From contig CAYPQZ010000008.1 in the NCBI GenBank assembly GCA_964413015.1, forward strand, positions 111,626 to 175,625: a stretch of DNA of 64,000 nucleotides. The letters run 5' to 3'. The notes beneath the pieces are model-generated. The model saw only the letters and a list, made by a program, of their open reading frames with translations. It was not told the origin of the DNA and did not search any database. The stretch comes from an uncultured Candidatus Saccharibacteria bacterium (GTDB lineage: Bacteria > Patescibacteriota > Minisyncoccia > Portnoybacterales > UBA2143). Position numbers and translations under genes: made by a program. Below, piece after piece: positions 3,191-64,000 of this stretch; positions within the stretch are counted from its first letter, which is position 1, and each line of letters starts with the position of its first letter.

Positions 3191-3262
3191 GCCCTCGTAG
3201 TTCAACGGATAGAACAGGGGCGTCCTAAGCCCTTGATGTGGGTTCGACTCCTACCGAGGGTA
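3191..3262 (+). tRNA. tRNA-Arg (CCT)
   Basis: Acceptor GCCCTCG/CGAGGGT (G1-U72), anticodon loop GU-CCT-AA, T-loop GGTTCGACTCC. Confidence 0.75.
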
Positions 3263-3364
3263 CATAATATTTATCCAAGAGCGAAGCGATTGGTAAATAA
3301 ATACTATATCCGTCTCAGGTGAACGCTGAATTTATTGGCAAAATCAAGATTTTGAATAAATTCG

Positions 3365-3438
3365 CGGGCCCATAGCGCAGTTGGTTAGCGCGTCTGTATG
3401 GCATACAGGAGGTCGAGGGTTCGAATCCCTCTGGGTCC
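3365..3438 (+). tRNA. tRNA-Ala (GGC)
   Basis: Acceptor GGGCCCA with G3:U70, anticodon loop AU-GGC-AU, T-loop GGTTCGAATCC. Confidence 0.8.
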
Positions 3439-3569
3439 ACATAATATTTATCCAAAATTTATTTTGGTTATAGATATTATGCCCGCCTCAAGAGGGCTGG
3501 AAGTAGATCTTGCCCGCCTCAGGCGAACGCTGAATTTATTAGCAAAATTAAAATTTTGAATAATTTTGC

Positions 3570-3644
3570 GCCGAGGTAGCTCAGGGGTAGAGCATTCGAC
3601 TGAAAATCGAAGTGTCGGCGGTTCGATTCCGCCCCTCGGCACCA
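3570..3644 (+). tRNA. tRNA-Phe (GAA)
   Basis: Acceptor GCCGAGG/CCTCGGC, anticodon loop CU-GAA-AA, encoded CCA. Confidence 0.85.
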
Positions 3645-3647
3645 AAA

Positions 3648-3719
3648 GCGGGAGTAGCTTAGTGGTAGAGCGTCTCGTTGCCAACGAGAAGATCGCGGGT
3701 TCGAACCCCGTCTCCCGCT
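3648..3719 (+). tRNA. tRNA-Gly (GCC)
   Basis: Acceptor GCGGGAG/CTCCCGC, anticodon loop UU-GCC-AA, T-loop GGTTCGAACCC. Confidence 0.85.
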
Positions 3720-5257: not shown

Positions 5258-5343
5258 TGGTGCCGCGGGTGGGACTCGAACCCACATGGATAAAATCCAC
5301 ACGATTTTAAGTCGTGCGCGTAAACCAATTCCGCCACCGCGGC
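5258..5343 (-). tRNA. tRNA-Leu (TAA)
   Basis: Acceptor GCCGCGG, anticodon loop CU-TAA-AA, long variable arm, CCA encoded. Confidence 0.85.
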
Positions 5344-5350
5344 ATTCAAG

Positions 5351-5421
5351 AGGCCACGACCGGAGTCGAACCGGTTTAGACGGTTTTGCAGACCGTTGCC
5401 TTACCGTTTGGCTACGTGGCC
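5351..5421 (-). tRNA. tRNA-Cys (GCA)
   Basis: Acceptor GGCCACG/CGTGGCC, anticodon loop CU-GCA-AA, T-loop GGTTCGACTCC. Confidence 0.85.
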
Positions 5422-49152: not shown

Positions 49153-49226
49153 CGTCCTCGGCAGGACTTGAACCTGCGACCTCTTCCTCCGCAAGGAAGC
49201 GCTCTATCCAACTGAGCCACGAGGAC
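49153..49226 (-). tRNA. tRNA-Arg (GCG)
   Basis: Anticodon stem CTTCC/GGAAG, loop UU-GCG-GA. Confidence 0.65.
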
Positions 49227-49793
49227 TTAAAATTTCAAACTGCGGGCTAAATTGTCAATCAGGGATTCTTTATGTTTTCTTTCAGGCAGGTATTTAAGTA
49301 AAAGCCTTCTTACTTCAACCGGGTTTTCTTCGCCTAAAGGGATTTTAATGTAGGGCATAATTGTTTTCTGACTGCGGATGCTTAATTCTCTGATTAACGG
49401 CGGTTCATAAAAAACCCAGAAAGACCTTAAGCTGTCAAAAGTGTAGAAAGTTTTGTTAATTTTAATTCCTTTAGGAGTGATTGTTAAGTTAAGGGTATTC
49501 GGTCTTTTAAAAGCAAAAGCGGTTACGGAAAAACAGCTTAAGATAATTAGAAAGGCAAAAATGAAATTCTTGCTAAAAATGGCCCAGATGAACAATCCGG
49601 TGGCAATCACTCCGATAGTAATAAACCAAGATTTGCTTTTTTTGTAATATTCAAATTCCGGAGCCGTCCATTCAAGGCGATCCTTTTTTCTTTCAGTTTC
49701 CTTTTTCGTTTCAGCTTTTCCCTCAACGTTTTTGGTATCACGTTCAGTCGGATTCATTTGTTTTTCTTTTAAATTTAAAACATTCTCAGTCAT
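49227..49793 (-). CDS. hypothetical membrane protein
   Basis: Lys/Glu-rich N-terminus, two TM helices, no family match recognised. Confidence 0.4.
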   Translation of the reverse strand: MTENVLNLKEKQMNPTERDTKNVEGKAETKKETERKKDRLEWTAPEFEYYKKSKSWFITIGVIATGLFIWAIFSKNFIFAFLIILSCFSVTAFAFKRPNTLNLTITPKGIKINKTFYTFDSLRSFWVFYEPPLIRELSIRSQKTIMPYIKIPLGEENPVEVRRLLLKYLPERKHKESLIDNLARSLKF

Positions 49794-49800
49794 ATTTTTA

Positions 49801-49886
49801 ACTGGCGGACTTCGTCACGCCGTAGCCACGCTTCAGCGTAGCTACTGGCGGATTTCGTCACGCCGTAGCCACGCTTCAGCGTGGCG
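49801..49886 (-). repeat. tRNA-Ser-associated double-hairpin repeat (2 tandem copies, first truncated)
   Basis: Same unit as 7941-7986. Confidence 0.8.
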
Positions 49887-49890
49887 AAGG

Positions 49891-49976
49891 CGGAGAGGGT
49901 GGGATTCGAACCCACGGTCGCCTAAGGCGACAGCAGTTTTCAAGACTGCCCGATTAAACCGCTCTCGCACCTCTCC
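49891..49976 (-). tRNA. tRNA-Ser (TGA)
   Basis: Acceptor GGAGAGG, anticodon loop CU-TGA-AA, long variable arm. Confidence 0.85.
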
Positions 49977-49983
49977 AAGAGGA

Positions 49984-50223
49984 TTACAATAAATGTTTTT
50001 TAATAAATGCTCTACTTGAACCGGATTTAAGATATTTTTCGAATTCGTATGCTTTGTATTTATCTTCAGTCGCAAAATAAAAGTTTAGCTTTGCTGGCAA
50101 ACGATTTACTGTTGCTGCTGCATGTCCTTTTTGATGTCGTTGAATTCTATCATTCAAGTCGTCAGTACAGCCTACATAATAGCCATCTTTGCATTTTAAG
50201 CTATAAACGTAATACATAAACAC
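49984..50223 (-). CDS. GIY-YIG nuclease family protein (YhbQ-like), paralog of 8081-8323
   Basis: MFMYYVYSLKCKDGYYVGCTDDLNDRIQRHQ has the GIY-YIG core. Ends 7 bp before the tRNA-Ser(TGA) 5' end. Confidence 0.7.
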   Translation of the reverse strand: MFMYYVYSLKCKDGYYVGCTDDLNDRIQRHQKGHAAATVNRLPAKLNFYFATEDKYKAYEFEKYLKSGSSRAFIKKHLL

Positions 50224-50238
50224 GTACCCGCTTTTGCG

Positions 50239-50328
50239 TAGCTACTGGCGGACTTCGTCACGCCGTAACCACGCTTCAGCGTAGCTACTGGCGGACTTCG
50301 TCACGCCGTAGCCACGCTTCAGCGTGGC
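50239..50328 (-). repeat. tRNA-Ser-associated double-hairpin repeat (2 tandem copies)
   Basis: Two 45-bp units, one with G to A in the loop. Confidence 0.8.
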
Positions 50329-50333
50329 GAAGG

Positions 50334-50418
50334 CGGAGAGGGAGGGATTCGAACCCTCGGTACCCGAAAGTACAACACCTTAGCAGGGTGCCCCATTCGA
50401 CCGCTCTGGCACCTCTCC
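50334..50418 (-). tRNA. tRNA-Ser (GCT)
   Basis: Acceptor GGAGAGG, anticodon loop CU-GCT-AA, long variable arm. Confidence 0.8.
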
Positions 50419-53457: not shown

Positions 53458-53790
53458 ATGTTTGAAAATTCGAACAAAAAACAAAATCTTGTTTTGCCTC
53501 AGGAGAAAAAACAGCGTCAATTGATGTTAGTCTTAGCTGTTATGATTTTGGCCATTATAGTTATTTTATTTTTCTATTTCAAACCTTTTGCGTCTAAGCA
53601 ACAGGTAACAACTGAAGAGAATTATTTTCCTGCTGCTCAGAAACAGCTTTTAAAAGAAGTCCTGGTTGATGAAATAGATTTTGACATTAGTTTTTTAAAA
53701 AAATCATTTTTCCAGTCACTGAAAGTCTACGGGGAGTGGCCTTTAAAGATTGGACAGAAAGGCCGGGCGAATCCGTTTTTGCCATATTAA
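53458..53790 (+). CDS. small membrane protein (possible PilP-like)
   Basis: One TM; position in the operon. Confidence 0.35.
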   Translation: MFENSNKKQNLVLPQEKKQRQLMLVLAVMILAIIVILFFYFKPFASKQQVTTEENYFPAAQKQLLKEVLVDEIDFDISFLKKSFFQSLKVYGEWPLKIGQKGRANPFLPY

Positions 53791-53795
53791 GTTCA

Positions 53796-55418
53796 ATGAA
53801 TAATTTAAAAAAAACAGAGAAGAATAATCTCAAAAAAAAACCCGAAAACTCAAAATATCCTTTTATAGACTTAAGTAATAAAGAAATTCCAGTAGAGATT
53901 TTAAAGGAAATTCCTGAAGAAGCAGCCACTTTTTACAAGTTTGTTCCGATAAACAGGAAAGGCAATATTCTTGAGTTGGGAATGGTTGATCCGGAAGATC
54001 TTAAAGCTAAGGAAGCTATGAGGTTTATTACCAGGCGTAGCGGATTGGAGCCAAAGATATTCGCCGTTGACATGGTTGGATTAAGGAATGTCATTAAGCA
54101 GTACCGGACCCTTCACGGAGAAGTTAAAAAAGCGCTTAAAGAACTGCAGGGAGAATTGGAAACAGAAACCAAGGCCGAATCGTCCAAAGAGAAAATTAAA
54201 GATATCGCTAAAAAAATTACTGCAGACGCGCCGATAACTAAAATAGTGGCTGTTATTTTAAGACATGCGGTGGAAGGCCAGGCTTCGGATATTCACATAG
54301 AACCGGTGGAAGACAGGGTTAAAGTCCGTTTCAGGATCGACGGTATTCTTTATACCAGTATTTTTTTGCCAAAAGATATTCAGTCAGCCATTGTCTCTCG
54401 GATAAAAATACTTACCAGTTTAAAAATTGACGAAACCAGAGTACCTCAAGATGGTCGTTTTTCGACGACTATCCTTAACAAAAAGATTGATTTCCGGGTT
54501 TCCTCTTTCCCTAATGTTAACGGAGAAAAAGTCGCCTTAAGAGTTCTTGATCCGACTACTGGACTCAAGCCTTTTAGCGAATTAGGCCTGCAGGATTACA
54601 ATCTGAAAACTTTAGAAAAAGCGATTCAGCAGCCTTTTGGCATGATTCTAATAAGCGGGCCGACCGGTTCTGGAAAATCAACCACTCTTTACAGTATTTT
54701 ACAGAAATTAGACCGAGAAGAAGTTAATGTTATTAGTTTGGAGGATCCGGTTGAATACCATATTGGCAATGTAAATCAGTCCCAAATTAGGCCGGAAATC
54801 GGCTATACTTTTGCTTCGGGACTACGGCATATTTTAAGGCAGGATCCGGACATAATTATGGTTGGCGAGATTAGAGATGAAGAGACCGCGAATTTATCTA
54901 TTCATGCCGCTTTAACCGGACATGTTTTTCTTTCTACCTTGCATACTAATAACGCTATTGGAGTTGTCCCTCGTCTGGCGGATATGGGAATTAGCCCTTT
55001 TCTTTTGCCTTCTTCCTTAAATTTGGCTATTGCGCAGAGATTAGTTAGACGGCTTTGCCCTCATTGCCGTAAAGAAGTTGCGGCTTCGCCTCAAATAACC
55101 GAAGCGATTGGAAAAGAATTAACTGCCTTGAATCCAATCCACAGAAAGGCGTTCCCTTGGGAAAAACCCTATAAGATTTATAAATCAGCCGGCTGTAAGT
55201 TTTGCGCTAAAAAGGGTACCAAGGGCAGAATTGCTCTTTTTGAAATGCTGACCATGACCCCTCAATTAGAGAAGATTATAAACGAAGGGCCGAGTGAAGC
55301 GAAGATAAAAGAAGAAGCTGATCGGCAGGGAATGATTACCATGAAGCAGGATGGAATTAATAAAGTGCTTCAAGGAGTTATTTCTTTTGAAGAAATGCTG
55401 AGGGCGGTTGAGAATTAA
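53796..55418 (+). CDS. pilB: type IV pilus assembly ATPase PilB/GspE family
   Basis: GPTGSGKSTTL Walker A, Asp/His boxes, tetracysteine CPHC...C..C. Start at ATG 53796 (the ORF-track start overlaps the upstream gene). Confidence 0.85.
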   Translation: MNNLKKTEKNNLKKKPENSKYPFIDLSNKEIPVEILKEIPEEAATFYKFVPINRKGNILELGMVDPEDLKAKEAMRFITRRSGLEPKIFAVDMVGLRNVIKQYRTLHGEVKKALKELQGELETETKAESSKEKIKDIAKKITADAPITKIVAVILRHAVEGQASDIHIEPVEDRVKVRFRIDGILYTSIFLPKDIQSAIVSRIKILTSLKIDETRVPQDGRFSTTILNKKIDFRVSSFPNVNGEKVALRVLDPTTGLKPFSELGLQDYNLKTLEKAIQQPFGMILISGPTGSGKSTTLYSILQKLDREEVNVISLEDPVEYHIGNVNQSQIRPEIGYTFASGLRHILRQDPDIIMVGEIRDEETANLSIHAALTGHVFLSTLHTNNAIGVVPRLADMGISPFLLPSSLNLAIAQRLVRRLCPHCRKEVAASPQITEAIGKELTALNPIHRKAFPWEKPYKIYKSAGCKFCAKKGTKGRIALFEMLTMTPQLEKIINEGPSEAKIKEEADRQGMITMKQDGINKVLQGVISFEEMLRAVEN

Positions 55419-55430
55419 TAATGAGTAAAA

Positions 55431-55907
55431 ATGAAAATTAAGCACAAAAGATTTACCTCGCACCTTTTAAGAATAGGCGCGGGGCGCCAAAAAAATAAAG
55501 AATTCTTGAAGAGTGCGGGGTTTACTTTAAGAGAGCTTTTAGTGGTGGTGGCTATAATTGGTCTCTTAGTGGCGATATCTACAATCAGTGTGGCAAAAAT
55601 TAAAACTAGAAAACAGGATGTCCATCGGGTGAGCGACATAAAATCCATTCAGGAAGCGCTGGCTATGTATCATAACGACTTCCAATTATATCCGATTTAC
55701 GATGGCTATATTACGGGAAGTGACTATATGTCAAATGAATTAATAAGTAATGGTGCAATTCGGCAGGTTCCGACTGATCCGGTAAATCTAGGCGATTATC
55801 AGTATTATTATCAATCTGTTGATGGCTCCGATTATTTAATAGAATATCATTTAGAAACAGATTCAATCGAAGGCAAATCACAGGGATTAAATACCTCTAT
55901 TCCATAA
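55431..55907 (+). CDS. type IV pilin-like protein (long leader)
   Basis: G|FTLRELLVVVAIIGLL class III signal. Confidence 0.65.
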   Translation: MKIKHKRFTSHLLRIGAGRQKNKEFLKSAGFTLRELLVVVAIIGLLVAISTISVAKIKTRKQDVHRVSDIKSIQEALAMYHNDFQLYPIYDGYITGSDYMSNELISNGAIRQVPTDPVNLGDYQYYYQSVDGSDYLIEYHLETDSIEGKSQGLNTSIP

Positions 55908-55993
55908 TTTGATTACGAAACACGAAGAATTACCAAAATACGAAAAACGACAATTCGTATATTAGTATAAAATTCGTAATTCGTAGAGAAATC

Positions 55994-56380
55994 ATGAAAA
56001 AAATTCTAATTATTGAAGACGATTCGTTCCTTAGCGAGATGTATTTGTCAAAATTTAATCAGAGCAATTTTCAAGCGGAAGTTGCCGCTGACGGCAAGGA
56101 AGGGCTGAATAAAGTTAAATCATTCAGGCCTGATTTGATTCTTCTAGACATTGTTTTGCCTAAAATGGACGGATTCGAAGTTCTTAAAGAAATAAAAAAC
56201 GATTCAGAATTGAAGAAAATTCCAGTTGTCCTTTTAACTAATCTTGGTCAGAAAAGCGAGGTTGAAAAAGGGCTGTCTTTAGGCGCCGAAGAATATATTA
56301 TTAAAGCTCATTTTACTCCCAGCGCTGTTGTTGAAAGGTCTAAAGAAATTATTAATAAGCAAATAACTAAGAATGAATAA
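55994..56380 (+). CDS. CheY-like response-regulator receiver protein (PilH-like)
   Basis: DD...D...K receiver residues; no output domain. Confidence 0.7.
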   Translation: MKKILIIEDDSFLSEMYLSKFNQSNFQAEVAADGKEGLNKVKSFRPDLILLDIVLPKMDGFEVLKEIKNDSELKKIPVVLLTNLGQKSEVEKGLSLGAEEYIIKAHFTPSAVVERSKEIINKQITKNE

Positions 56381-57449
56381 CGAAAATTACCAAAAACAGC
56401 TTGAAGAAATTTTAGAATTAGCCATAAAAAGGGACGCTAGCGATGTACATTTATCAGTTGGCAAGCCGCCTGTTTTCAGAATTAATGGAGAATTAATCTC
56501 TTTTAAGGGAAAGGCGGTTTTGTCTAAAGAAGATACTCAAGGATTGGCTTTCACGATTCTTACTGAAGAAAAAAAAGATAAGTTTCTTAGCCAAAAGGAT
56601 ATTGATTTATCTTTCACCTTTCAAAAAAAAGCACGTTTCAGGGTCAATGTTTACATGCAGTTAGGGAAAATCAGTATTGCCTTACGCTTGATTCATGGTA
56701 AAATCAGGACTATTGAAGAACTAAAATTACCCGCTATTTCCTATGAGATTGCTAGAGCTCCTCAAGGATTCTTTTTAGTAGTTGGACCTTCCGGACAAGG
56801 GAAATCTACCGCTTTAGCGGCTTTAGTTAATGAAATCAATCATACTCGCTGTGATCACATTGTTACTATCGAAGACCCAGTAGAGTATTTATTTAAGGAA
56901 GACAAATGTATTATTGATCAACGGGAAGTCGGCGAGGATGTCCAAGATTTTCACCGAGGCCTGCGCGAGGTTTTCCGGCAGGACCCGGATGTAATTATGA
57001 TTGGCGAAATGCGCGACCAGGAAACAATTAGCAGCGCAGTGACCGCGGCTGAAACCGGACATTTGGTTTTGACAACCTTGCATACCAATACGGTCTCGCA
57101 GACAATTGACCGAATCATTGACAGCTTTCCGCCGCATCAACAAAACCAGATAAGAATGCAATTGTCATCGACAATTTTAGGAATTTTTTCACGCCGATTA
57201 ATCCCTAGTCCTAAAGAAGGAATGATTAATGCGGTTGAATTGATGATTGCCAATTCAGCTATTAGGAACCTGATTAGAGAAGGGAAAACCCATCAGATAG
57301 ATATGATTATTGAAACCAGCTCGGAAGAAGGAATGATTTCTTTGAATCGTTCTCTAGTTGATTTGGTCAATCAGGGAATGATTTCTTTGGAAAACGCCGA
57401 GCTGCATTCAACCAACCTTTCGGAATTGAGAATGTTGTTAAAGAAATAA
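56373..57449 (+). CDS. pilT: twitching-motility/retraction ATPase PilT
   Basis: GPSGQGKST Walker A, PilT family length and motifs. Confidence 0.8.
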   Translation: MNNENYQKQLEEILELAIKRDASDVHLSVGKPPVFRINGELISFKGKAVLSKEDTQGLAFTILTEEKKDKFLSQKDIDLSFTFQKKARFRVNVYMQLGKISIALRLIHGKIRTIEELKLPAISYEIARAPQGFFLVVGPSGQGKSTALAALVNEINHTRCDHIVTIEDPVEYLFKEDKCIIDQREVGEDVQDFHRGLREVFRQDPDVIMIGEMRDQETISSAVTAAETGHLVLTTLHTNTVSQTIDRIIDSFPPHQQNQIRMQLSSTILGIFSRRLIPSPKEGMINAVELMIANSAIRNLIREGKTHQIDMIIETSSEEGMISLNRSLVDLVNQGMISLENAELHSTNLSELRMLLKK

Positions 57450-57458
57450 ATTTGACAT

Positions 57459-58664
57459 ATGAAATTTAATTATTTAGTCAGAACCAAAGATGGAGAATTG
57501 CAGAGTGGAGAAGTTAAGGCGATTGATAAAGAAGTAGCTATAAAAACTCTGCAAAATAATGATTTGATAGTTATTAAGCTTCAGCCAAATCATAAGATTT
57601 CTCTTTTGGCAAAGGATATCAGCATCTTTAATCGAATTAAGCGGAAAGAAATATTTGTTTTTTTCCGGCAACTGTCTATTTTGGTAGAGGCAAACATTCC
57701 TTTAGTTCATGCCTTAAAATCTTTGGGTCAGCAGGTAAAAAGCCCCTATTTTGAGGAAATTATTTTTGATATAGCCAATAATGTAGACGGAGGCATGTCT
57801 CTGTCCCAGTCTATGTCAAAATACCCCAAAGTATTTTCTAATTTTTCCATAAACTTAATAAAGTCAGGCGAAGTCAGCGGGCGGCTTCAGGAAACACTAA
57901 ATTATTTGGCCGATTATTTGGAAAAAGAATATGAACTTATTTCAAAGATAAGAGGGGCGATGGCATATCCGGCTTTTATTCTAAGCGCTTTCTTGATAAT
58001 AGGGGTTCTAGTTATGATTATGGTTATTCCCAATTTAACGGACATTTTGCTTGAAAGCGGTCAAGATTTACCATGGACGACTAAAGTGGTTATTGCGGTC
58101 AGCGGATTTATAAGCAGTTTTTGGTGGGTCGTTCTGTTGTTATTAATCATCGGTTTTTTCTGCTTTTCTAGATATAAGAAAACCGAACGTGGAAAGGAAT
58201 ATTGGGATAGGATTAAATTAAGAATCCCTGTTTTCGGGGAACTTCTTCAGAAAATGTATTTAGCCCGTCTGGCTAACAATTTGAGCGCCTTGACAAAAGG
58301 CGGGGTTTCGATTATTCAAAGCTTGAGTATTTCCGGACATGTAGTCAATAATGCAGTTTTTCAGAAAATTCTTTTTCAAGCCAGAGATAAGGTAAAAACA
58401 GGTAAAAATATTAGTTCAGTTTTTGAAAAACATAAAGAATTTCCTCCCTTGTTTTGCCAAATGATTAAAACTGGGGAAAAAACCGGAAAGTTGGACGCTC
58501 TTTTGGAAAAATTAAGCAATTTTTACACCAAAGAAGTGGATAATGTAGTTAATAGCTTGAGCCAGTTAATTGAACCCTTGTTAATAGTTGTTTTGGGCGT
58601 CGGCATTGGGATTTTGGTTATGGCCGTTTTTATGCCGATATATAATCTGACCGGGAGTTTTTAA
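57459..58664 (+). CDS. pilC: type IV pilus platform protein PilC (T2SS F family)
   Basis: Two GspF repeats, three TM helices. Confidence 0.8.
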   Translation: MKFNYLVRTKDGELQSGEVKAIDKEVAIKTLQNNDLIVIKLQPNHKISLLAKDISIFNRIKRKEIFVFFRQLSILVEANIPLVHALKSLGQQVKSPYFEEIIFDIANNVDGGMSLSQSMSKYPKVFSNFSINLIKSGEVSGRLQETLNYLADYLEKEYELISKIRGAMAYPAFILSAFLIIGVLVMIMVIPNLTDILLESGQDLPWTTKVVIAVSGFISSFWWVVLLLLIIGFFCFSRYKKTERGKEYWDRIKLRIPVFGELLQKMYLARLANNLSALTKGGVSIIQSLSISGHVVNNAVFQKILFQARDKVKTGKNISSVFEKHKEFPPLFCQMIKTGEKTGKLDALLEKLSNFYTKEVDNVVNSLSQLIEPLLIVVLGVGIGILVMAVFMPIYNLTGSF

Positions 58665-58911
58665 ATAATAAAAATATAGGTTTTGGGAATATATTACAAT
58701 GACAATATAGGGATTGGTTATTCAGGAACTGATATAAGTAATCAATGAGGAGATTGTTCCTGGGGGATGTTCAAGGTGTTAATAGATGGAGAATACCTTC
58801 TTGAGCCAGTAGATTGACGGTTTTGTACTAGGATGTTTCTACAACGACCCTGCTTATTGTTTGAAATCATAAAGGTCGGGAATAAAAATAATAAAAATTG
58901 CGCGAAAGGGG

Positions 58912-59400
58912 GTGAAAAAAATGTTAAAGATTTTTAGCGCCAGAAAAGGTGAAAAAGGTTTTACCTTAATTGAGCTTTTAGTGGTTATGGCCATTATTGG
59001 AATTTTGGCAACCATTGTTTTAGTTTCCTTAAACACGGCCAGGCAAAAAGCCCGTGATACTCGTCGCATCAGCGATTTAAGGCAGGTCGCTTTAGCTTTG
59101 GAAATGTATTATGATGATAATGGCGGTTATCCGTCTGATACTACTGCCAGCGATGATGACTGGGCGGTTTTAGAAACAGAGCTGGAAGCGTCTCCTGTTT
59201 ACATGACTTCAGTTCCGTCTGACCCGGGCAGTAATACTTATGTTTATCATCCGAGTGGGACAACGGACAATGGTGCAACTGATTATGTCTTAGGAGCAAC
59301 TTTAGAGAATACAGATAATAAAGCTCTTGATGATGCTTATGACGGTACCGCTAATGGATTAGATTGTTCCGATTCAGGGCTTTACTGTATAATGCCTTAA
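58912..59400 (+). CDS. pilA: type IV major pilin
   Basis: KG|FTLIELLVVMAIIGIL prepilin signal, Ser/Thr/Asp-rich C-terminus. SD GGGGGTGA. Confidence 0.8.
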   Translation: MKKMLKIFSARKGEKGFTLIELLVVMAIIGILATIVLVSLNTARQKARDTRRISDLRQVALALEMYYDDNGGYPSDTTASDDDWAVLETELEASPVYMTSVPSDPGSNTYVYHPSGTTDNGATDYVLGATLENTDNKALDDAYDGTANGLDCSDSGLYCIMP

Positions 59401-59404
59401 TTTT

Positions 59405-59485
59405 TAGTTAAATAACCTGGTAATCGGGAAGCTTAGCAGGACCGGATGTTTTCTGCTAAGCTTGAGATTATCAGGTTATTTGTGT
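59405..59485 (+). terminator. long imperfect hairpin after pilA
   Basis: About 30-bp stem AAATAACCTGGTAATCGGGAAGCTTAGCAGG / CTGCTAAGCTTGAGATTATCAGGTTATTT. Confidence 0.5.
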
Positions 59486-59520
59486 AAAAGAGCCAAAAGG
59501 CGATTTTTAAAAATTTAAGG

Positions 59521-59610
59521 ATTGTCATTGAGAGTAGTGACCTTCCGCCGAAGGCGGAAAGTTACGCTCACCTGTCCGCCTCCGGAGGGAAAAGACGATT
59601 CTTAAATTTT
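59521..59610 (+). other. conserved ~90-nt non-coding element, copy B
   Basis: See copy A (35240-35330). Confidence 0.6.
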
Positions 59611-59694
59611 GACAAGCTTCCATGATAAGAACAGTCTTTAAAATGACGCCCTTGTGCTCAAGGGACATCATTTTAAGGACTGTCCTTTAATGAC

Positions 59695-60486
59695 ATGTTT
59701 ATTTATCTTTTCATCTTTTTATTTGGCCTGATGATCGGCAGTTTCCTGAATGTAGTTATTTACCGTTTAGAAACCAAAGAGTCAATCATTAAAGGCCGCT
59801 CTCATTGTTTAGAATGTGGCGTTGTTTTGAAGTGGTATGATAATATTCCGTTATTAAGTTTTATTTTTCTGCGCGGCCGCTGTCGTTTCTGCGGGCAGAA
59901 AATAAGCTGGCAGTACCCTATAGTCGAAATAGCGACTGCTTCGTTATTTCTTCTAATTTTTAATTTTAAATTTTTAATTTTTAAACAGTTTTTAATTTTT
60001 AATTTTATAGACTTAATTTATCTCTGGTTTATTGCATCGGTTTTGATAATTATTTTTGCTTATGACTTAAAGCATTATATTATTCCTGACAAGATTGTTT
60101 ACCCAGCCATTGTCGTATCTGGTATTTGGTATTTAGTATCTGGCATTCTTATACGAAATACGAAATACGAGTTACGAGATACTATTCTGGGTGCCGTTTT
60201 GACTGCTCTGTTTTTTTTCCTGATAGTCCTTATTACTAAAGGCAAAGGTATGGGCTTGGGTGATGTTAAGCTGGCTTTCTTAATGGGTTTAGCGCTGGGC
60301 TGGCCCAGTATTTTAATCGCCCTGTTTTTATCTTTTATGAGCGGAGCGATTGTTGGCATAGGATTGATAGCGGTTGGCAAAAAAGGCCTGAAATCGCAAA
60401 TTCCCTTTGGTCCGTTTCTATCAGCTAGCGCAATCTTTGTTCTGGTTTTTAAAGACTATTTGACAATGTTTTTAGATAAAATATAA
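59695..60486 (+). CDS. pilD: prepilin peptidase (A24 family) PilD
   Basis: N-terminal CLEC...C..C zinc finger, DLKHYIIPD and GLGDVK catalytic Asp motifs. Confidence 0.8.
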   Translation: MFIYLFIFLFGLMIGSFLNVVIYRLETKESIIKGRSHCLECGVVLKWYDNIPLLSFIFLRGRCRFCGQKISWQYPIVEIATASLFLLIFNFKFLIFKQFLIFNFIDLIYLWFIASVLIIIFAYDLKHYIIPDKIVYPAIVVSGIWYLVSGILIRNTKYELRDTILGAVLTALFFFLIVLITKGKGMGLGDVKLAFLMGLALGWPSILIALFLSFMSGAIVGIGLIAVGKKGLKSQIPFGPFLSASAIFVLVFKDYLTMFLDKI

Positions 60487-60513
60487 TATTAATAAGAAAG
60501 GAGGATTAAGTTT

Positions 60514-60963
60514 ATGAATAAAAAATTGTCTATTCCAATTTTTTTAATATTGCTTATTTTAATAATAGCCGCGGCTAATTATTGCTATTATTTTATTTAC
60601 CAAAAAGCAGAAGTTAATCAGGATTCAGAGAATCAGGATAATCAAGAAGGAATAATAGATGAGCAGGAAAACGCCCAAGAACCAGCCAGTAATTTTTTAG
60701 AAGGCGTTTTTCAAAAACAGGAGGATAATTTTGCTTATGTTATTCCAAAAGACGAGGAGGATGCTGAAAAAATTAAATTAACCGAAGAAACTGTTTTTTC
60801 AGAAGTAATCTTTTCCAGCCAACTGGAAGTCATTGAGGAAAAAGAAATTGATCGGTCCGTTATTAAAGAAGGAAATCCAATTGTGGTCTTTTTCTCTAGT
60901 GATGATACGACCGAAGACAAAATAGCTTTAGCCCTTAAACGAATAATTGTAGAAAATGAATAA
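60514..60963 (+). CDS. hypothetical acidic membrane-anchored protein
   Basis: N-terminal TM, Glu/Asp/Gln-rich. Confidence 0.35.
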   Translation: MNKKLSIPIFLILLILIIAAANYCYYFIYQKAEVNQDSENQDNQEGIIDEQENAQEPASNFLEGVFQKQEDNFAYVIPKDEEDAEKIKLTEETVFSEVIFSSQLEVIEEKEIDRSVIKEGNPIVVFFSSDDTTEDKIALALKRIIVENE

Positions 60964-61354
60964 TAATGGAATAAAATTCTCTTTAAACCTCGAAGCCTAC
61001 CCTTTGGAGGCAATCTACGGGGCGGCCTATGTTTTTATTGACAAGGCATATTTGTTTTTAGATAATCCTTCTTCTAAAAAAATTGAAGTATTCCTAAAAA
61101 GCAAAACCCAAAAAAGCAAAAAACAATTAGAGAATTTAAAAGGAGAGTTTTTGAACGAACTTTTGAATTATACTCTAAGAGTTAATTTAAATAAGCGCAA
61201 CCGGAAGATAAGGGAATACATTGTTAATCAAGCTTTGTTTTCAGCCGTTAAACAGGAAGAGATTAAACAGGAAGATAAATTGGGGTATCAGGACGACCCC
61301 TTAGGTATTGCAGTTCCTTGGGAAGAGAAATATGGAAAGAAAAATTCTGATTAA
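60956..61354 (+). CDS. hypothetical protein (possible accessory of the His-Xaa-Ser locus)
   Basis: 132 aa, no motif recognised. Overlaps its neighbours in an operon-like arrangement. Confidence 0.3.
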   Translation: MNNNGIKFSLNLEAYPLEAIYGAAYVFIDKAYLFLDNPSSKKIEVFLKSKTQKSKKQLENLKGEFLNELLNYTLRVNLNKRNRKIREYIVNQALFSAVKQEEIKQEDKLGYQDDPLGIAVPWEEKYGKKNSD

Positions 61355-61547
61355 TTTCAATAAAAAAATATATCCTCTCAGGGCAGTAAAATTAGCCATA
61401 AAAGAATATCGAAACTTGGCTAATTTTAGTTTGAGACAAAAAGGAAATTATATAATAGTAGAATTAAAAGATATTGACAAAGATGTTGTAGAAATAATCA
61501 AGGATGAATTTTGCAATTATGTCCTCTTTAAATCTAAACAAAGTTAA
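61308..61547 (+). CDS. small hypothetical protein (possible HxsD-like accessory)
   Basis: 79 aa, overlaps the start of the radical-SAM gene. Confidence 0.3.
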   Translation: MQFLGKRNMERKILINFNKKIYPLRAVKLAIKEYRNLANFSLRQKGNYIIVELKDIDKDVVEIIKDEFCNYVLFKSKQS

Positions 61548-62979
61548 ATACAATCAGCTTGGGTTTTTCCGTTTTAAGAAATTTAAGAATAAATATCTTT
61601 TAACTAACGATATTGGTGATTACATATTCTTGAAAGAAAAAGAATTTGATAATTTTTTAACTGGCAATTTAGAAAAAGACAAAGAGCCGTATCTATCTTT
61701 AAAAGAAAAAAACTTTCTGAAAGATGAAATAGATTTGACTGGAATGATAGAAAAATATCGTTCTAAAAAAGCTTTTCTTTTTGACGGGCCCAGTTTGCAT
61801 ATTGTGGTTGTCACTTTAAGATGCAATCATCGATGCGTTTATTGCCATGCCAGCGCTCAGGATATGGATAGGAAGGATTTGGATATGGGGCAGGATATAG
61901 CCAAGCAGGTAGTTGAGAAAATTTTTCAAACCCCCAGCCCTTTTGTGGCCATCGAATTTCAGGGCGGCGAGCCCTTAATCAATTGGCCAGTGGTTAAGTT
62001 AATTATTGAACAGGCACAGAAGAGAAACAAACAAGCTAAAAAAGATTTGCAGATTCGTTTGGTCTCCAATTTTGATTTTATGACCGAGGAAAAGTTTGAA
62101 TATTTGCTTGATAAAAAGGTGAGTTTATGTGTTTCTCTAGATGGTCCGGAAGAATTGCACAACAGAAATCGACCGATTAGGGACTCTATAAAAGGATATA
62201 GTAATTACAAGAATATAGCTAAGTGGGTTAGGAAATTTAATAAGCTTTATTCGCAGCTAAAGAAGAAAGGCTATATTTATAGAATTGCCGGTCGAGTAAC
62301 TATTAGTCGTTATTCTTTGCCTAAAGCTGAAGAAATTGTTGACCAGTATCTTAAATTAGGTTTTGACAGCTTTTATTTGCATCATCTTAATCCTTTTGGT
62401 TTTTCTAAGGAAAGCCAAAAAAAAATTGGCTATTCTGCTGAAGAATATATCAATTTCTACAAAAAAGCCCTTAATTATGTTATCCAGCTGAATCTTAAAG
62501 GCAAAAAATTCAAAGAAAGGATGGCTTTAACTTTTTTAACCAAGATTTTAACTGAAACTGACCCTAATCATTTAGATTACCGGTCGCCTTGCGGAGCCGG
62601 TATCGGCCAATTGGCTTACAATTACAACGGAGATGTTTATACCTGCGACGAAGGAAGAATGTTAAGCATGATGGGAGATGAAAGTTTCCGCTTGGGCAAT
62701 ATTAAAAAAAACAGCTATCAGGAAATAGTTGCCAATCCGATTGTCCGGACCCTGGCCACCGCTTCTTGCTTGGAAGATGTTCCTGGATGCAGTGATTGCG
62801 TTTACAAACCATATTGCGGAGTTTGTCCTATTTACAATTATTTCTCCCAAGGAAATATTTTTGGTCAAGCTCCTAATAACCAAAGGTGTCAAATAAATAA
62901 GGCCATTTTGGATTTTTTATTTGAAAAACTAGAAGATCCTAAAATCAGAACAATCTTGGAAACTTGGCCTAAGAAATAG
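61504..62979 (+). CDS. radical SAM / SPASM-domain peptide maturase (His-Xaa-Ser system HxsB/HxsC-like)
   Basis: CNHRCVYCHA (CxxxCxxC) and a C-terminal Cys-rich SPASM region CDEG...CSDCVYKPYCGVCP. Directly upstream of the His-Gly-Ser repeat peptide. Confidence 0.7.
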   Translation: MNFAIMSSLNLNKVKYNQLGFFRFKKFKNKYLLTNDIGDYIFLKEKEFDNFLTGNLEKDKEPYLSLKEKNFLKDEIDLTGMIEKYRSKKAFLFDGPSLHIVVVTLRCNHRCVYCHASAQDMDRKDLDMGQDIAKQVVEKIFQTPSPFVAIEFQGGEPLINWPVVKLIIEQAQKRNKQAKKDLQIRLVSNFDFMTEEKFEYLLDKKVSLCVSLDGPEELHNRNRPIRDSIKGYSNYKNIAKWVRKFNKLYSQLKKKGYIYRIAGRVTISRYSLPKAEEIVDQYLKLGFDSFYLHHLNPFGFSKESQKKIGYSAEEYINFYKKALNYVIQLNLKGKKFKERMALTFLTKILTETDPNHLDYRSPCGAGIGQLAYNYNGDVYTCDEGRMLSMMGDESFRLGNIKKNSYQEIVANPIVRTLATASCLEDVPGCSDCVYKPYCGVCPIYNYFSQGNIFGQAPNNQRCQINKAILDFLFEKLEDPKIRTILETWPKK

Positions 62980-63040
62980 ATTTGAGTTATCCACAAATAA
63001 AGATTAAATTAATCGTTAAAAATTGCTATAATAAAGACAA

Positions 63041-63496
63041 ATGATTAAGAATAAGTTGCCTCAGGTCAAAAAAGACATTAAGGCCTTTTTAACTAGCGAA
63101 GAAGGCAGGATTAATAAAAAGAAAGTGGCTAAAATCGCTATGACTGTTTTAGCTTTGGGGATTGGTTTGGCCGGAGCAATGAAGCCGGATCCAAGTTCAG
63201 CTGCTTGTTCTCACGCTTCTCATGGCTCTCACAGCTCCCATAGTTCCCATGGCTCCCATGGCTCTCATGGTTCCCATGGTTCCCATGGCTCCCATGGCTC
63301 TCATAGTTCTCATAGCTCTCATAGTTCCCATGGCTCTCATGGCTCCCATGGTTCCCATGGTTCCCATGGTTCCCATGGCTCCCATGGCTCCCATGGTTCC
63401 CATGGTTCCCATGGTTCCCATAGTTCCCATGGCTCCCATGGTTCCCATGGCTCCCATGGTTCCCATAGCTCCCATAGCTCCCATAGCTCTTATTAA
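63041..63496 (+). CDS. His-Xaa-Ser repeat precursor peptide (leader + ~30x S-H-G/S)
   Basis: N-terminal leader with one hydrophobic stretch, then SHGSHGSHSSH... to the stop. Confidence 0.7.
   Translation: MIKNKLPQVKKDIKAFLTSEEGRINKKKVAKIAMTVLALGIGLAGAMKPDPSSAACSHASHGSHSSHSSHGSHGSHGSHGSHGSHGSHSSHSSHSSHGSHGSHGSHGSHGSHGSHGSHGSHGSHGSHSSHGSHGSHGSHGSHSSHSSHSSY
63214..63493 (+). repeat. tandem 9-bp repeat (TCCCATGGY/TCYCATAGY) x ~31
   Basis: Direct nonamer array encoding the SHG/SHS repeats. Confidence 0.9.
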
Positions 63497-63508
63497 ATTT
63501 GTAATATG

Positions 63509-64000
63509 AGTTTGAATAAAAAAATACTATTTTCAACAATTATTATAATTATTTTTATAGTTGCCATATTTGTGGGAGCATTTTTTTATCTGCCTGAAGA
63601 GCAAATTCCATCAGATATTTCTCAGAAAACAGATAAGGAAAAATGCTTAGAAGATGTGGCTCAAATGACCGACCAAGAATTAATTAACGAAGTCAAGAAT
63701 TTAAAAGATCCATATGGAGAAACGGGTATTGTTGGCAGCGATGGCATTCCCAAAGATAGAATGTCCTGGGCCCAAAATCAAATGTCTCGATATCTAATTT
63801 GCAAATTGAGGATTAATTCTAATAATGAAGATGTTTATAATAGAGCAAAAAAGTTTATCGATGAATCAGGCTTTGAAGAAGAATACGAAGACAATAAACA
63901 GATTTATTTGTCCAAACTGGAAAGAGCGCGTTCTGTTCCTGTAGAAAACTCTTTTAATATACAGCTGGCCCTAGGCGATTTAGATGAAATCTGTCCCAAT
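63509..64000 (+). CDS. hypothetical membrane-anchored protein (5' part, runs off the window)
   Basis: ATG at 63509, N-terminal TM, open frame to the window end. It is absent from the ORF track only because no stop is seen. Confidence 0.45.

Follow-up and report, generated by a model that had tools for sequence, protein, structure and literature searches.

What does a radical-SAM/SPASM enzyme make of a neighbouring peptide that consists largely of His- and Ser-containing repeats, and to which system do the two genes belong? The question is raised by a locus at the 3′ end of a 64-kb stretch of Patescibacteria DNA (64,000 nucleotides (nt) of contig CAYPQZ010000008.1), here called the window, to which all coordinates refer unless a related locus (L number) is named. 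The original prediction for this locus had named the His-Xaa-Ser (Hxs) family, which was defined in silico by Haft and Basu in 2011 (as cited in PMC9062424). Searches with hidden Markov models (HMMs) bear this out, as four of four genes, hxsD, hxsD-like, hxsB and hxsA4, pass the curated NCBIfam cut-offs. Judged from these profile matches, the locus is almost certainly an HxsA4-type (type-4) Hxs system without HxsC, encoded on the chromosome of a Parcubacteria-group member of the Patescibacteria. NCBIfam already has definitions of both the family and its type-4 variant, so that the locus adds a member while leaving the classification unchanged; what is new here is the absence of HxsC, two candidate accessory membrane proteins, synteny with a pilus block, variation in array length and mis-annotation of the peptide. 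The earlier description of the family as biochemically uncharacterised is outdated for the canonical type, for which an antiphage function has been shown, the E. coli HxsD-B-C-A system being broadly antiphage and blocking phage DNA entry (Li et al., Nat Commun 2026, PMC13128918). The features on which the argument draws are the following.

60460 to 60487, + strand: sigma-70-like promoter, TTGACA, 16-nt spacer and TATAAT, matching 12 of 12 consensus positions
60514 to 60963, + strand: up149, an open reading frame (ORF) of 149 amino acids (aa)
60956 to 61354, + strand: hxsD, 132 aa, TIGR03976
61332 to 61547, + strand: hxsD-like, 71 aa from ATG 61332 (the listed ORF starts at TTG 61308), NF038315
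61504 to 62979, + strand: hxsB, 491 aa, TIGR03978
63041 to 63496, + strand: hxsA4, 151 aa, NF038313
63221 to 63489, + strand: 9-bp tandem DNA array, consensus CATGGCTCC, 29.9 copies by Tandem Repeats Finder
63506 to 64000, + strand: TM291, the N-terminal 165 codons of 291 aa, running off the window end (full length in L001, 8020-8895)

The 491-aa product in which a CxxxCxxC motif and a C-terminal SPASM-like region had been noted does contain both. The motif is C107xxxC111xxC114 (CNHRCVYC), in the sole CxxxCxxC ORF of the 64-kb window, and Radical_SAM, Fer4_12 and SPASM are matched above threshold in Pfam. An HMM search of 61504-62979, as suggested at the outset, returned Radical_SAM, SPASM and TIGR03978, the last at 543.5 bits (cut-off 370) over residues 21-488 and profile positions 3-465 of 466; in the accessions given earlier HxsB and HxsC had been swapped, TIGR03978 being the HxsB model and TIGR03977 that of HxsC. 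When HxsB is aligned with two relatives 47-49% identical, no change is seen at the SPASM-region residues C363, C381, C422, C429, C432, C438, C441 and C462. By sequence, the nearest solved structures are CteB (5wgg, E 6.5e-19) and then anSME (4k36-4k39, E ~1e-9), and the N-terminal ~95 residues, which fall outside both alignments, are family-specific. The PADLOC defence models gave nothing but generic radical-SAM similarity to viperins.

The peptide gene begins 61 bp after hxsB, close to the ~60 bp estimated before, and encodes the leader and the one hydrophobic segment described at that time. HxsA4 scores 106.4 bits against NF038313 (cut-off 55), with the best stretch at residues 5-95 and profile positions 1-91 of 93; TIGR03979 (HxsA) is not among its NCBIfam matches. 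Residues 1-28 form a conserved leader, LPxVKKDIKxFLTSEEGxI, residues 29-45 the hydrophobic segment VAKIAMTVLALGIGLAG, with a hydropathy peak of 1.89 at residue 29, and residues 46-55 a linker that ends in SAA before Cys56 and is compatible with signal peptidase I. The rest, residues 56-151, consists of 31 H-x-S units and a C-terminal SSY. The roughly 30 triplets from a near-perfect 9-bp array that had been described correspond to 31 His units and to a single array of period 9 (87% matches, score 328). The repeat region opens C-SH-A-SH-G, and in an X-S-H reading the 9-nt units comprise 21 GSH, 8 SSH, 1 ASH and 1 CSH, and the invariant codons are those for His (CAT/CAC) and for the Ser two positions on (TCY), the middle codon being GGY (Gly), AGY (Ser) or, once, GCT (Ala). 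Since His and the +2 Ser are fixed while the middle position toggles, the true unit is H-x-S. Apart from His, the mature region is free of acidic and basic residues; it is made up of His, Ser, Gly and Ala, together with a single Cys and a single Tyr. Prepilin-type processing by the adjacent prepilin peptidase was considered for this peptide and rejected, as no G/FTLxE class III motif was seen by eye.

Two other readings of the repeat ORF would make its radical-SAM neighbour unrelated, namely that it encodes a collagen-like Gly-X-Y protein or that an ORF on the opposite strand is the real gene. The former draws on a match to the Pfam Collagen model (PF01391, 35.7 bits versus a gathering score of 27.2) and on weak matches to Scl/Lcl adhesins. 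The latter draws on the public JGI gene calls, which in five same-strain contigs place an antisense ORF over the array instead of hxsA4; the 151-aa product is unrecorded, an exact-product look-up in the gene-position index having returned nothing. The antisense ORFs are these.

Window 63138 to 63539, − strand: ORF over hxsA4
Window 63197 to 63484, − strand: ORF over hxsA4
L001 7666 to 7989, − strand: JGI ORF called instead of hxsA4
L105 5442 to 5783, − strand: JGI ORF called instead of hxsA4
L108 3952 to 4275, − strand: JGI ORF called instead of hxsA4

However, Ser or Ala occupies the Gly position in 10 of the 31 units, the family uses A, S, G, N, T, V or D there, and it is His and Ser, not Gly, that are fixed across the family; the Pfam match is compositional. 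Likewise, only the sense frame has the leader common to 544 database proteins (E ≤ 1e-5) and a match to NF038313 from residue 5, and because this conserved N-terminal leader lies in the same frame as the repeats, the repeat frame is not a chance one. The adjacency to hxsB is, moreover, kept across phyla. The collagen-like and antisense readings are thus scarcely credible, being effectively refuted by conservation at the level of the family, and the repeat ORF is taken as the target peptide of an Hxs system in what follows. Long-array HxsA4 peptides are probably under-annotated in general.

The two small ORFs upstream of hxsB had been proposed as accessory components, and both proved to belong to the family. 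HxsD scores 69.6 bits against TIGR03976 (NCBIfam cut-off 50) and carries the LLNxYxLR-type motif as ELLNYTLRV; the public protein P0121 is identical to it and already bears the JGI name HxsD. An AlphaFold2 model of HxsD (mean predicted local distance difference test score 81) has a beta-alpha-beta-beta core followed by a 50-residue helix. Its C-terminal tail (61256-61354, residues ~101-132) is modelled as disordered and lies outside the 90-position TIGR03976 profile; the tail sequence DDPLGIAvPWEeKyg occurs in 38 of the 65 HxsD proteins of the survey, is invariant or nearly so in close relatives and could be a docking motif. HxsD-like scores 76.6 bits against NF038315 (cut-off 41), with a weak match to TIGR03976 (E 0.0017), and on profile and motif evidence it is a truncated HxsD paralogue, the motifs Y..A...A..F and EF.NyvL being common to the two. 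Its start is more likely ATG 61332 (71 aa), as in the public gene calls, than TTG 61308, and in relatives, too, the gene stands between hxsD and hxsB.

The four-gene HxsA/B/C/D pattern that had been expected therefore holds for HxsB, HxsD and the repeat peptide, the last as an HxsA4-type variant, and fails for HxsC. Over the 64-kb window and a further 9.5 kb past its end, which L001 supplies, neither HxsC (TIGR03977) nor HxsC4 (NF038332) was found, the remaining genome being unsearched. A hidden downstream HxsC was rejected, as the four further radical-SAM genes of this 9.5-kb extension include neither HxsC nor HxsC4; the best HxsC score among the ten genes downstream in L001 is 32.9 bits versus a cut-off of 267.9. 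The genes that follow TM291 there (L001 8995-17448) encode a methyltransferase-like protein, a B12-binding radical-SAM protein, a second methyltransferase, an SgcJ-like protein, a 313-aa radical-SAM protein, two radical-SAM/SPASM proteins and a GT4 glycosyltransferase. From this group only the 313-aa radical-SAM protein and the glycosyltransferase reappear near an Hxs block, in the close relative L017, and the group is treated as a separate neighbour cluster.

The absence of HxsC is no peculiarity of one contig. An alignment search with HxsB retrieved 80 genome loci, and gene architecture was surveyed over 85 loci, in 72 of which HxsD was present; the count for HxsD-like is also 72. For 55 of the 85 an HxS peptide was detected, usually directly 3′ of hxsB, and several of the peptide-less loci stop within a few hundred bases of hxsB. 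An HxsC-like orthologue occurs in only ~25 of the 85 loci and in none of the window clade. HxsC4 is therefore not universal among type-4 loci; HxsC-less minimal loci are common within the type, and the window locus is one of them. The closest HxsB loci (68-80% identical) come from Patescibacteria metagenome-assembled genomes labelled Parcubacteria or "Saccharibacteria", and relatives of HxsD are named Candidatus Portnoybacteria, which belongs to the Parcubacteria group in the NCBI taxonomy.

The order D, D-like, B, A is found in most of the 80 related loci, in Patescibacteria, Elusimicrobia, Omnitrophota and Myxococcota, and four architectures can be told apart. The first, that of the window clade, runs up149, D, D-like, B, A ending in SSY, and TM291, without an HxsC-like gene. 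The second, in other Patescibacteria and in Omnitrophota, has D, D-like, B, a Cys-rich protein, A, and then PapB-like, HxsC-like and further radical-SAM genes; the best NCBIfam matches of its HxsC-like proteins are HxsC4 and HxsC, below both cut-offs. The third (Elusimicrobia) has D, B and A ending in GQW, and the fourth (Myxococcota) D, D-like, B and A ending in GSW, here without a hydrophobic segment. After many other-clade type-4 loci stand 4-8 extra radical-SAM genes (HxsC-like, PapB-like), interleaved with uncharacterised ~300-aa proteins, as at L005, L006, L007, L020, L021, L024, L026, L027, L053 and L060; L006, from a DPANN archaeon, has HxsD, HxsD-like and three HxsC-like genes. Radical-SAM proteins of ~300 aa from other clades match HxsC4 best, at 139-166 bits, which is under the cut-off of 500.

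These gene-rich loci bear on the possibility that the system is a conventional pathway for a ribosomally synthesised peptide that is modified after translation (RiPP), in which the hydrophobic segment would be part of the leader and a triceptide-like ladder of three-residue His-Ser cyclophanes would be released as a diffusible bioactive or signal peptide. The additional radical-SAM genes resemble those of elaborate RiPP clusters, HxsB is a SPASM peptide maturase, the Myxococcota leader lacks a hydrophobic segment, and H-x-S formally fits the aromatic-X-X motif, at position 1 of which characterised triceptide enzymes accept His (PMC11499958). Against this, neither the window locus nor the loci of the relatives examined are accompanied by a gene for a protease or an ABC exporter, a core of ~95 residues with 31 identical units would be far larger than known triceptides, and HxsB stays well under the cut-offs of characterised cyclophane synthases. 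The canonical HxsA, furthermore, is a processed protein anchored in the envelope and no small molecule (PMC13128918). A diffusible RiPP is accordingly regarded as quite unlikely.

The database search gave 544 HxsA4 relatives at E ≤ 1e-5, of 83-222 aa, from Omnitrophota, Patescibacteria, Elusimicrobia, Actinobacteria and one DPANN archaeon, and some of them are already labelled "His-Xaa-Ser repeat protein HxsA4". The shared plan is a leader, usually a hydrophobic segment, a short linker (in many cases with a small-x-small site at its end), the H-x-S run, and an aromatic or Cys-containing C terminus. Counted over 176 family peptides, the leader LPxIKKDIKxFLxSEEGxI (FLxSEEG-type) is present in 148 and the hydrophobic segment in 109, and the last residue is W or Y in 112; many end in Cys motifs, e.g. 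GGWC or CCCG. The median His count of these peptides is 15, and the window peptide, with 31, ranks 167 of 176. Two tandem hxsA4 genes, of 20 and 6 units, stand downstream of one hxsB in L018 (11585-11956 and 11975-12214).

Relatives of HxsB were also met on IMG/VR viral-class contigs (L089-L099, 33-39% identical), together with HxsA-like proteins of other subtypes. One kind has an FLxEEEGNI leader, a hydrophobic segment, HxS units and a long Pro/Thr-rich spacer, (TPKPTVKPTA)n; the second has an ordinary signal peptide, 5-7 units and the end SSRY. The 16 HxsB relatives on viral contigs are all at ≤39% identity and accompany other HxsA subtypes, so that no close relative of the locus was found there. 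Pro/Thr-rich spacers are typical of wall-spanning regions. Because related HxsA-like proteins have such a spacer after the repeats, the part that follows the hydrophobic segment probably lies outside the cytoplasm.

That the repeat count might vary among related genomes had been raised at the outset, and it does so at every level compared: 5-55 His across the family, 10-43 in the closest clade and 31-38 H-x-S units within the strain. The same-strain assemblies show 0 mismatches over 2,024 nt of hxsD-hxsB. When the span 63206-63493 was compared with L001, L105, L106 and L108, the five complete hxsA4 genes had 31 (window), 35 (L106), 36 (L001 and L108) and 38 units (L105). The first 24 units are identical in all, every change lying in the 3′ third of the array, and what sets L001 apart from the window is a block of five units cleanly duplicated (45 bp), the sequence to either side being identical. 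The same-strain length variants reflect either population heterogeneity, arising by in-frame slippage, or assembler ambiguity. The 10-43 range, seen among close relatives, is no artefact of a single assembly.

Turning to the surroundings, hxsD, hxsD-like, hxsB and hxsA4 form a tightly packed block in one orientation on the + strand. Successive genes overlap by 8 nt (up149/hxsD), 23 nt (hxsD/hxsD-like, assuming the start at ATG 61332) and 44 nt (hxsD-like/hxsB), and only 10 nt separate the hxsA4 stop from TM291; a sequence-consensus scan found no terminator-like site 3′ of hxsA4. The promoter match at 60460-60487 lies inside the 3′ end of the prepilin peptidase gene, 27 nt before up149. The promoter and terminator evidence consists of consensus matches, and in total the region holds no more promoter-like sites than are expected from shuffled sequence. 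The operon probably also takes in the two membrane-anchored proteins up149 and TM291, and the unit thus reaches past the 61308-63496 first delimited on either side, and past the window end.

Neither up149 nor TM291 matched a Pfam, NCBIfam or PADLOC family. The former has an N-terminal membrane anchor and an acidic body, with homologues at the same position in L009, L010, L011, L013, L014 and L017. TM291, membrane-anchored and Cys-rich, stands directly 3′ of hxsA4 in L003, L009, L013, L016 and L017 and ~4.6 kb downstream of it in L018; a protein search gave just 2 database homologues. A weak profile match (87%, 27 columns) relates it to unk246, the Cys-rich family whose genes in other clades lie between hxsB and hxsA4 and which was first seen as a 246-aa protein in L007. 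Both up149 and TM291 are probably clade-specific accessory genes, counted as such because the closest relatives, too, have them in these positions.

The Cys-rich neighbours lead to the rival that has to be taken most seriously, a metal-binding surface or secreted peptide whose 31 imidazoles would capture or buffer Ni, Zn or Cu, with no part in phage defence. The radical-SAM step would then pre-organise or rigidify the ligands, in a cell of minimal metabolism. Such a function would suit the composition of the mature region, the Cys motifs at the ends of many family members and the conservation of adjacent membrane-anchored Cys-rich proteins (TM291, unk246). Copper-binding, His-cross-linked ribosomal peptides have been reported (PMC10206099). 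On the other hand, the locus has no linked gene for a metal transporter, regulator or metalloenzyme, either within the window or among the surveyed relatives, and quick change of repeat number is less usual in metal homeostasis than in surface or defence proteins. The sole experimental evidence on any Hxs system concerns phage defence (PMC13128918). A metal-binding role is consequently considered unlikely, and a defensive role of the type-4 system, by analogy with the canonical one, is preferred.

The position beside a pilus operon, for which the original prediction had no explanation, turns out to be no accident within the lineage, but it does not extend to the family. The type IV pilus block upstream (53736-60486) encodes a PilB-like ATPase, a pilin, a response regulator, PilT, PilC, a second pilin and the prepilin peptidase. 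The succession of pilus block and Hxs block is syntenic in L009-L014, L017 and L026, and absent in other Patescibacteria and in all other phyla surveyed. In L026 the same site holds an HxsB just 50% identical, in the fuller class 2 architecture, and the pilus-adjacent site is possibly a variable slot. Pilus adjacency is thus a feature of chromosome position in this lineage and not a functional link across the family. The window is chromosomal, since it encodes 18 tRNAs as well as GyrA, RecG, FtsH and a class I tRNA synthetase. The 18 tRNA genes, several of them in small clusters (3191-3719, 5261-5421, 49153-50418), represent a high density even for a small genome.

In combination, these observations can be arranged into a scheme, an HxsC-less type-4 system with processing, export and a barrier role, which as a whole we consider somewhat more probable than its negation. 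HxsA4 would be made with its ~28-residue leader, which the cytoplasmic machinery would recognise. Guided by the leader, HxsB would use its radical-SAM cluster, along with the two auxiliary clusters of its SPASM region, for hydrogen abstraction from H-x-S side chains and would modify many or all of the 31 units in the cytoplasm. HxsD and its truncated paralogue would act as partner or chaperone subunits; given that there is no HxsC here, both would have to work with HxsB. By way of the hydrophobic segment the modified C-terminal polymer would cross or enter the membrane, N terminus inside and repeats outside, with cleavage probable after SAA, just before Cys56. The product would be a surface-exposed or released poly(His-x-Ser) chain of ~95 residues with an aromatic end. 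As to chemistry, the likeliest options, though speculative, would be an intra-unit cross-link from His to Ser(+2), as in three-residue cyclophanes, and an oxidation of Ser like that performed by anSME. The role that is most likely, again by analogy only, would be an envelope-level barrier to incoming phage DNA, its length tuned by gain and loss of repeats. Chemistry and role are the weakest steps of the scheme.

Several points weigh against this scheme. HxsC, which is essential and the partner of HxsD in the canonical system, is absent from the locus, and the function ascribed to type 4 is carried over from canonical Hxs, not from work on type 4. The canonical model of electrostatic DNA binding transfers poorly, because the HxsA4 repeats lack Lys and Arg, and Pfam finds no peptidoglycan-binding domain in HxsA4. 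Export is not universal, since the Myxococcota members have no hydrophobic segment. By profile score, HxsB appears closer to thioether-forming maturases (PapB 119.8 bits, SCIFF 107.9 bits; NCBIfam) than to cyclophane synthases (GrrM/OscB 60.7 bits, cut-off 310; YhhB 49.2 bits, cut-off 445). For canonical HxsA the reported mass shift is +8 Da (PMC13128918), where a cyclophane or formylglycine would be expected to give -2 Da. No defence-island marker was found elsewhere in the window, and PADLOC has no Hxs model. The length variants, finally, could be artefacts of short-read assembly; the contigs L107 and L002 break inside the array. A bolder version of the scheme is very unlikely: a stripped-down Hxs with a single radical-SAM enzyme, in which HxsB, aided by HxsD and HxsD-like, would make of 31-38 units without spacers a rigid cross-linked ladder, and this, together with up149 and TM291, would guard a surface without an outer membrane against entry of phage DNA and possibly of DNA via the pilus, its length switched frequently by 9-bp slippage as a form of contingency-locus immunity at the envelope of ultra-small bacteria.

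The interest of the locus lies partly in its simplicity. For canonical Hxs the one modification reported is +8 Da on a single unit, and its two radical-SAM enzymes were not separable (PMC13128918). The present system is HxsB-only with a substrate of almost purely 31 H-x-S units, and so provides a clean test bed for HxsB alone; because of the ~30 repeated units, any per-unit modification would be magnified ~30-fold when measured by NMR or mass spectrometry. Across uncultured phyla type-4 loci are widespread, in contrast to the 99.7% of systems assigned to Pseudomonadota in the HxsA-based survey of 2026 (PMC13128918). The hxsA4 peptide is routinely overlooked by gene callers, and array length may vary within populations.

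Set beside the canonical system, which occurs in Escherichia, Klebsiella and further Pseudomonadota, the window locus shows both clear likeness and clear difference. Compared with the proteins of an Aeromonas plasmid, its HxsB shows 36% identity over 97% of the plasmid HxsB (E 1e-110) and its HxsD 24% identity (E 2.6e-5); both systems have a tandem H-x-S target with an N-terminal hydrophobic segment of export type, and co-oriented genes with D first and A last. The window locus differs in having no HxsC and an additional truncated HxsD paralogue, 31 contiguous units versus the canonical 5-6, units without Arg or Lys, no peptidoglycan-binding domain, and a long conserved leader before the hydrophobic segment. 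Canonical processing of HxsA needs all three of HxsB, HxsC and HxsD, HxsC binds HxsD, the +8 Da modification maps to an SHRSS unit, and the mature HxsA, a processed and envelope-anchored protein, must be periplasmic, where it binds DNA (PMC13128918). The host differs as well, being a Patescibacteria chromosome here, whereas in the HxsA-based survey 99.7% of canonical systems were from Pseudomonadota and 99.8% had all four genes (PMC13128918).

The plasmid reference is the canonical hxsD-B-C-A operon of the conjugative plasmid 4 of Aeromonas salmonicida A449 (L109, NC_009349.1 14139-22509), which has a type I restriction subunit M gene on one side and a TnsA-like gene on the other; the HxsA encoded there carries six Arg-rich units and a C-terminal domain. 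In a tblastn search of the plasmid collection, relatives of HxsB were found on 409 plasmids (325 conjugative, 316 from Klebsiella), and the best 12 were 34-37% identical to the window HxsB.

With NCBIfam type 4 the locus shares an HxsA4 (NF038313) and an HxsD-like protein (NF038315), both above cut-off, and differs in the absence of HxsC4 (NF038332). Other type-4 clades have a Cys-rich protein between hxsB and hxsA4, in place of which the window clade has TM291 after hxsA4, plus up149.

Among the triceptide systems, radical-SAM/SPASM synthases join His-C2 to the C-beta of residue +2, as do HaaB (HAA), YhhB (HNR) and HtkB (HTK) (PMC11499958). The likeness lies in a SPASM maturase with a precursor that carries an aromatic-X-X motif, His at position 1 and often repetition, and H-x-S formally fits the motif. 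However, HxsB is outside those families, far below the GrrM/OscB and YhhB cut-offs, and the window repeats are far more numerous and contiguous without spacer.

With CteB, the SCIFF thioether maturase, and anSME, the anaerobic sulfatase-maturating enzyme, HxsB has in common the SPASM architecture and two auxiliary clusters. Thioether formation is impossible in the repeats, which contain no Cys. Oxidation of the Ser or Cys C-beta is the reaction of anSME, and by analogy an oxidation of this type is a plausible first step on the invariant Ser of HxsA4.

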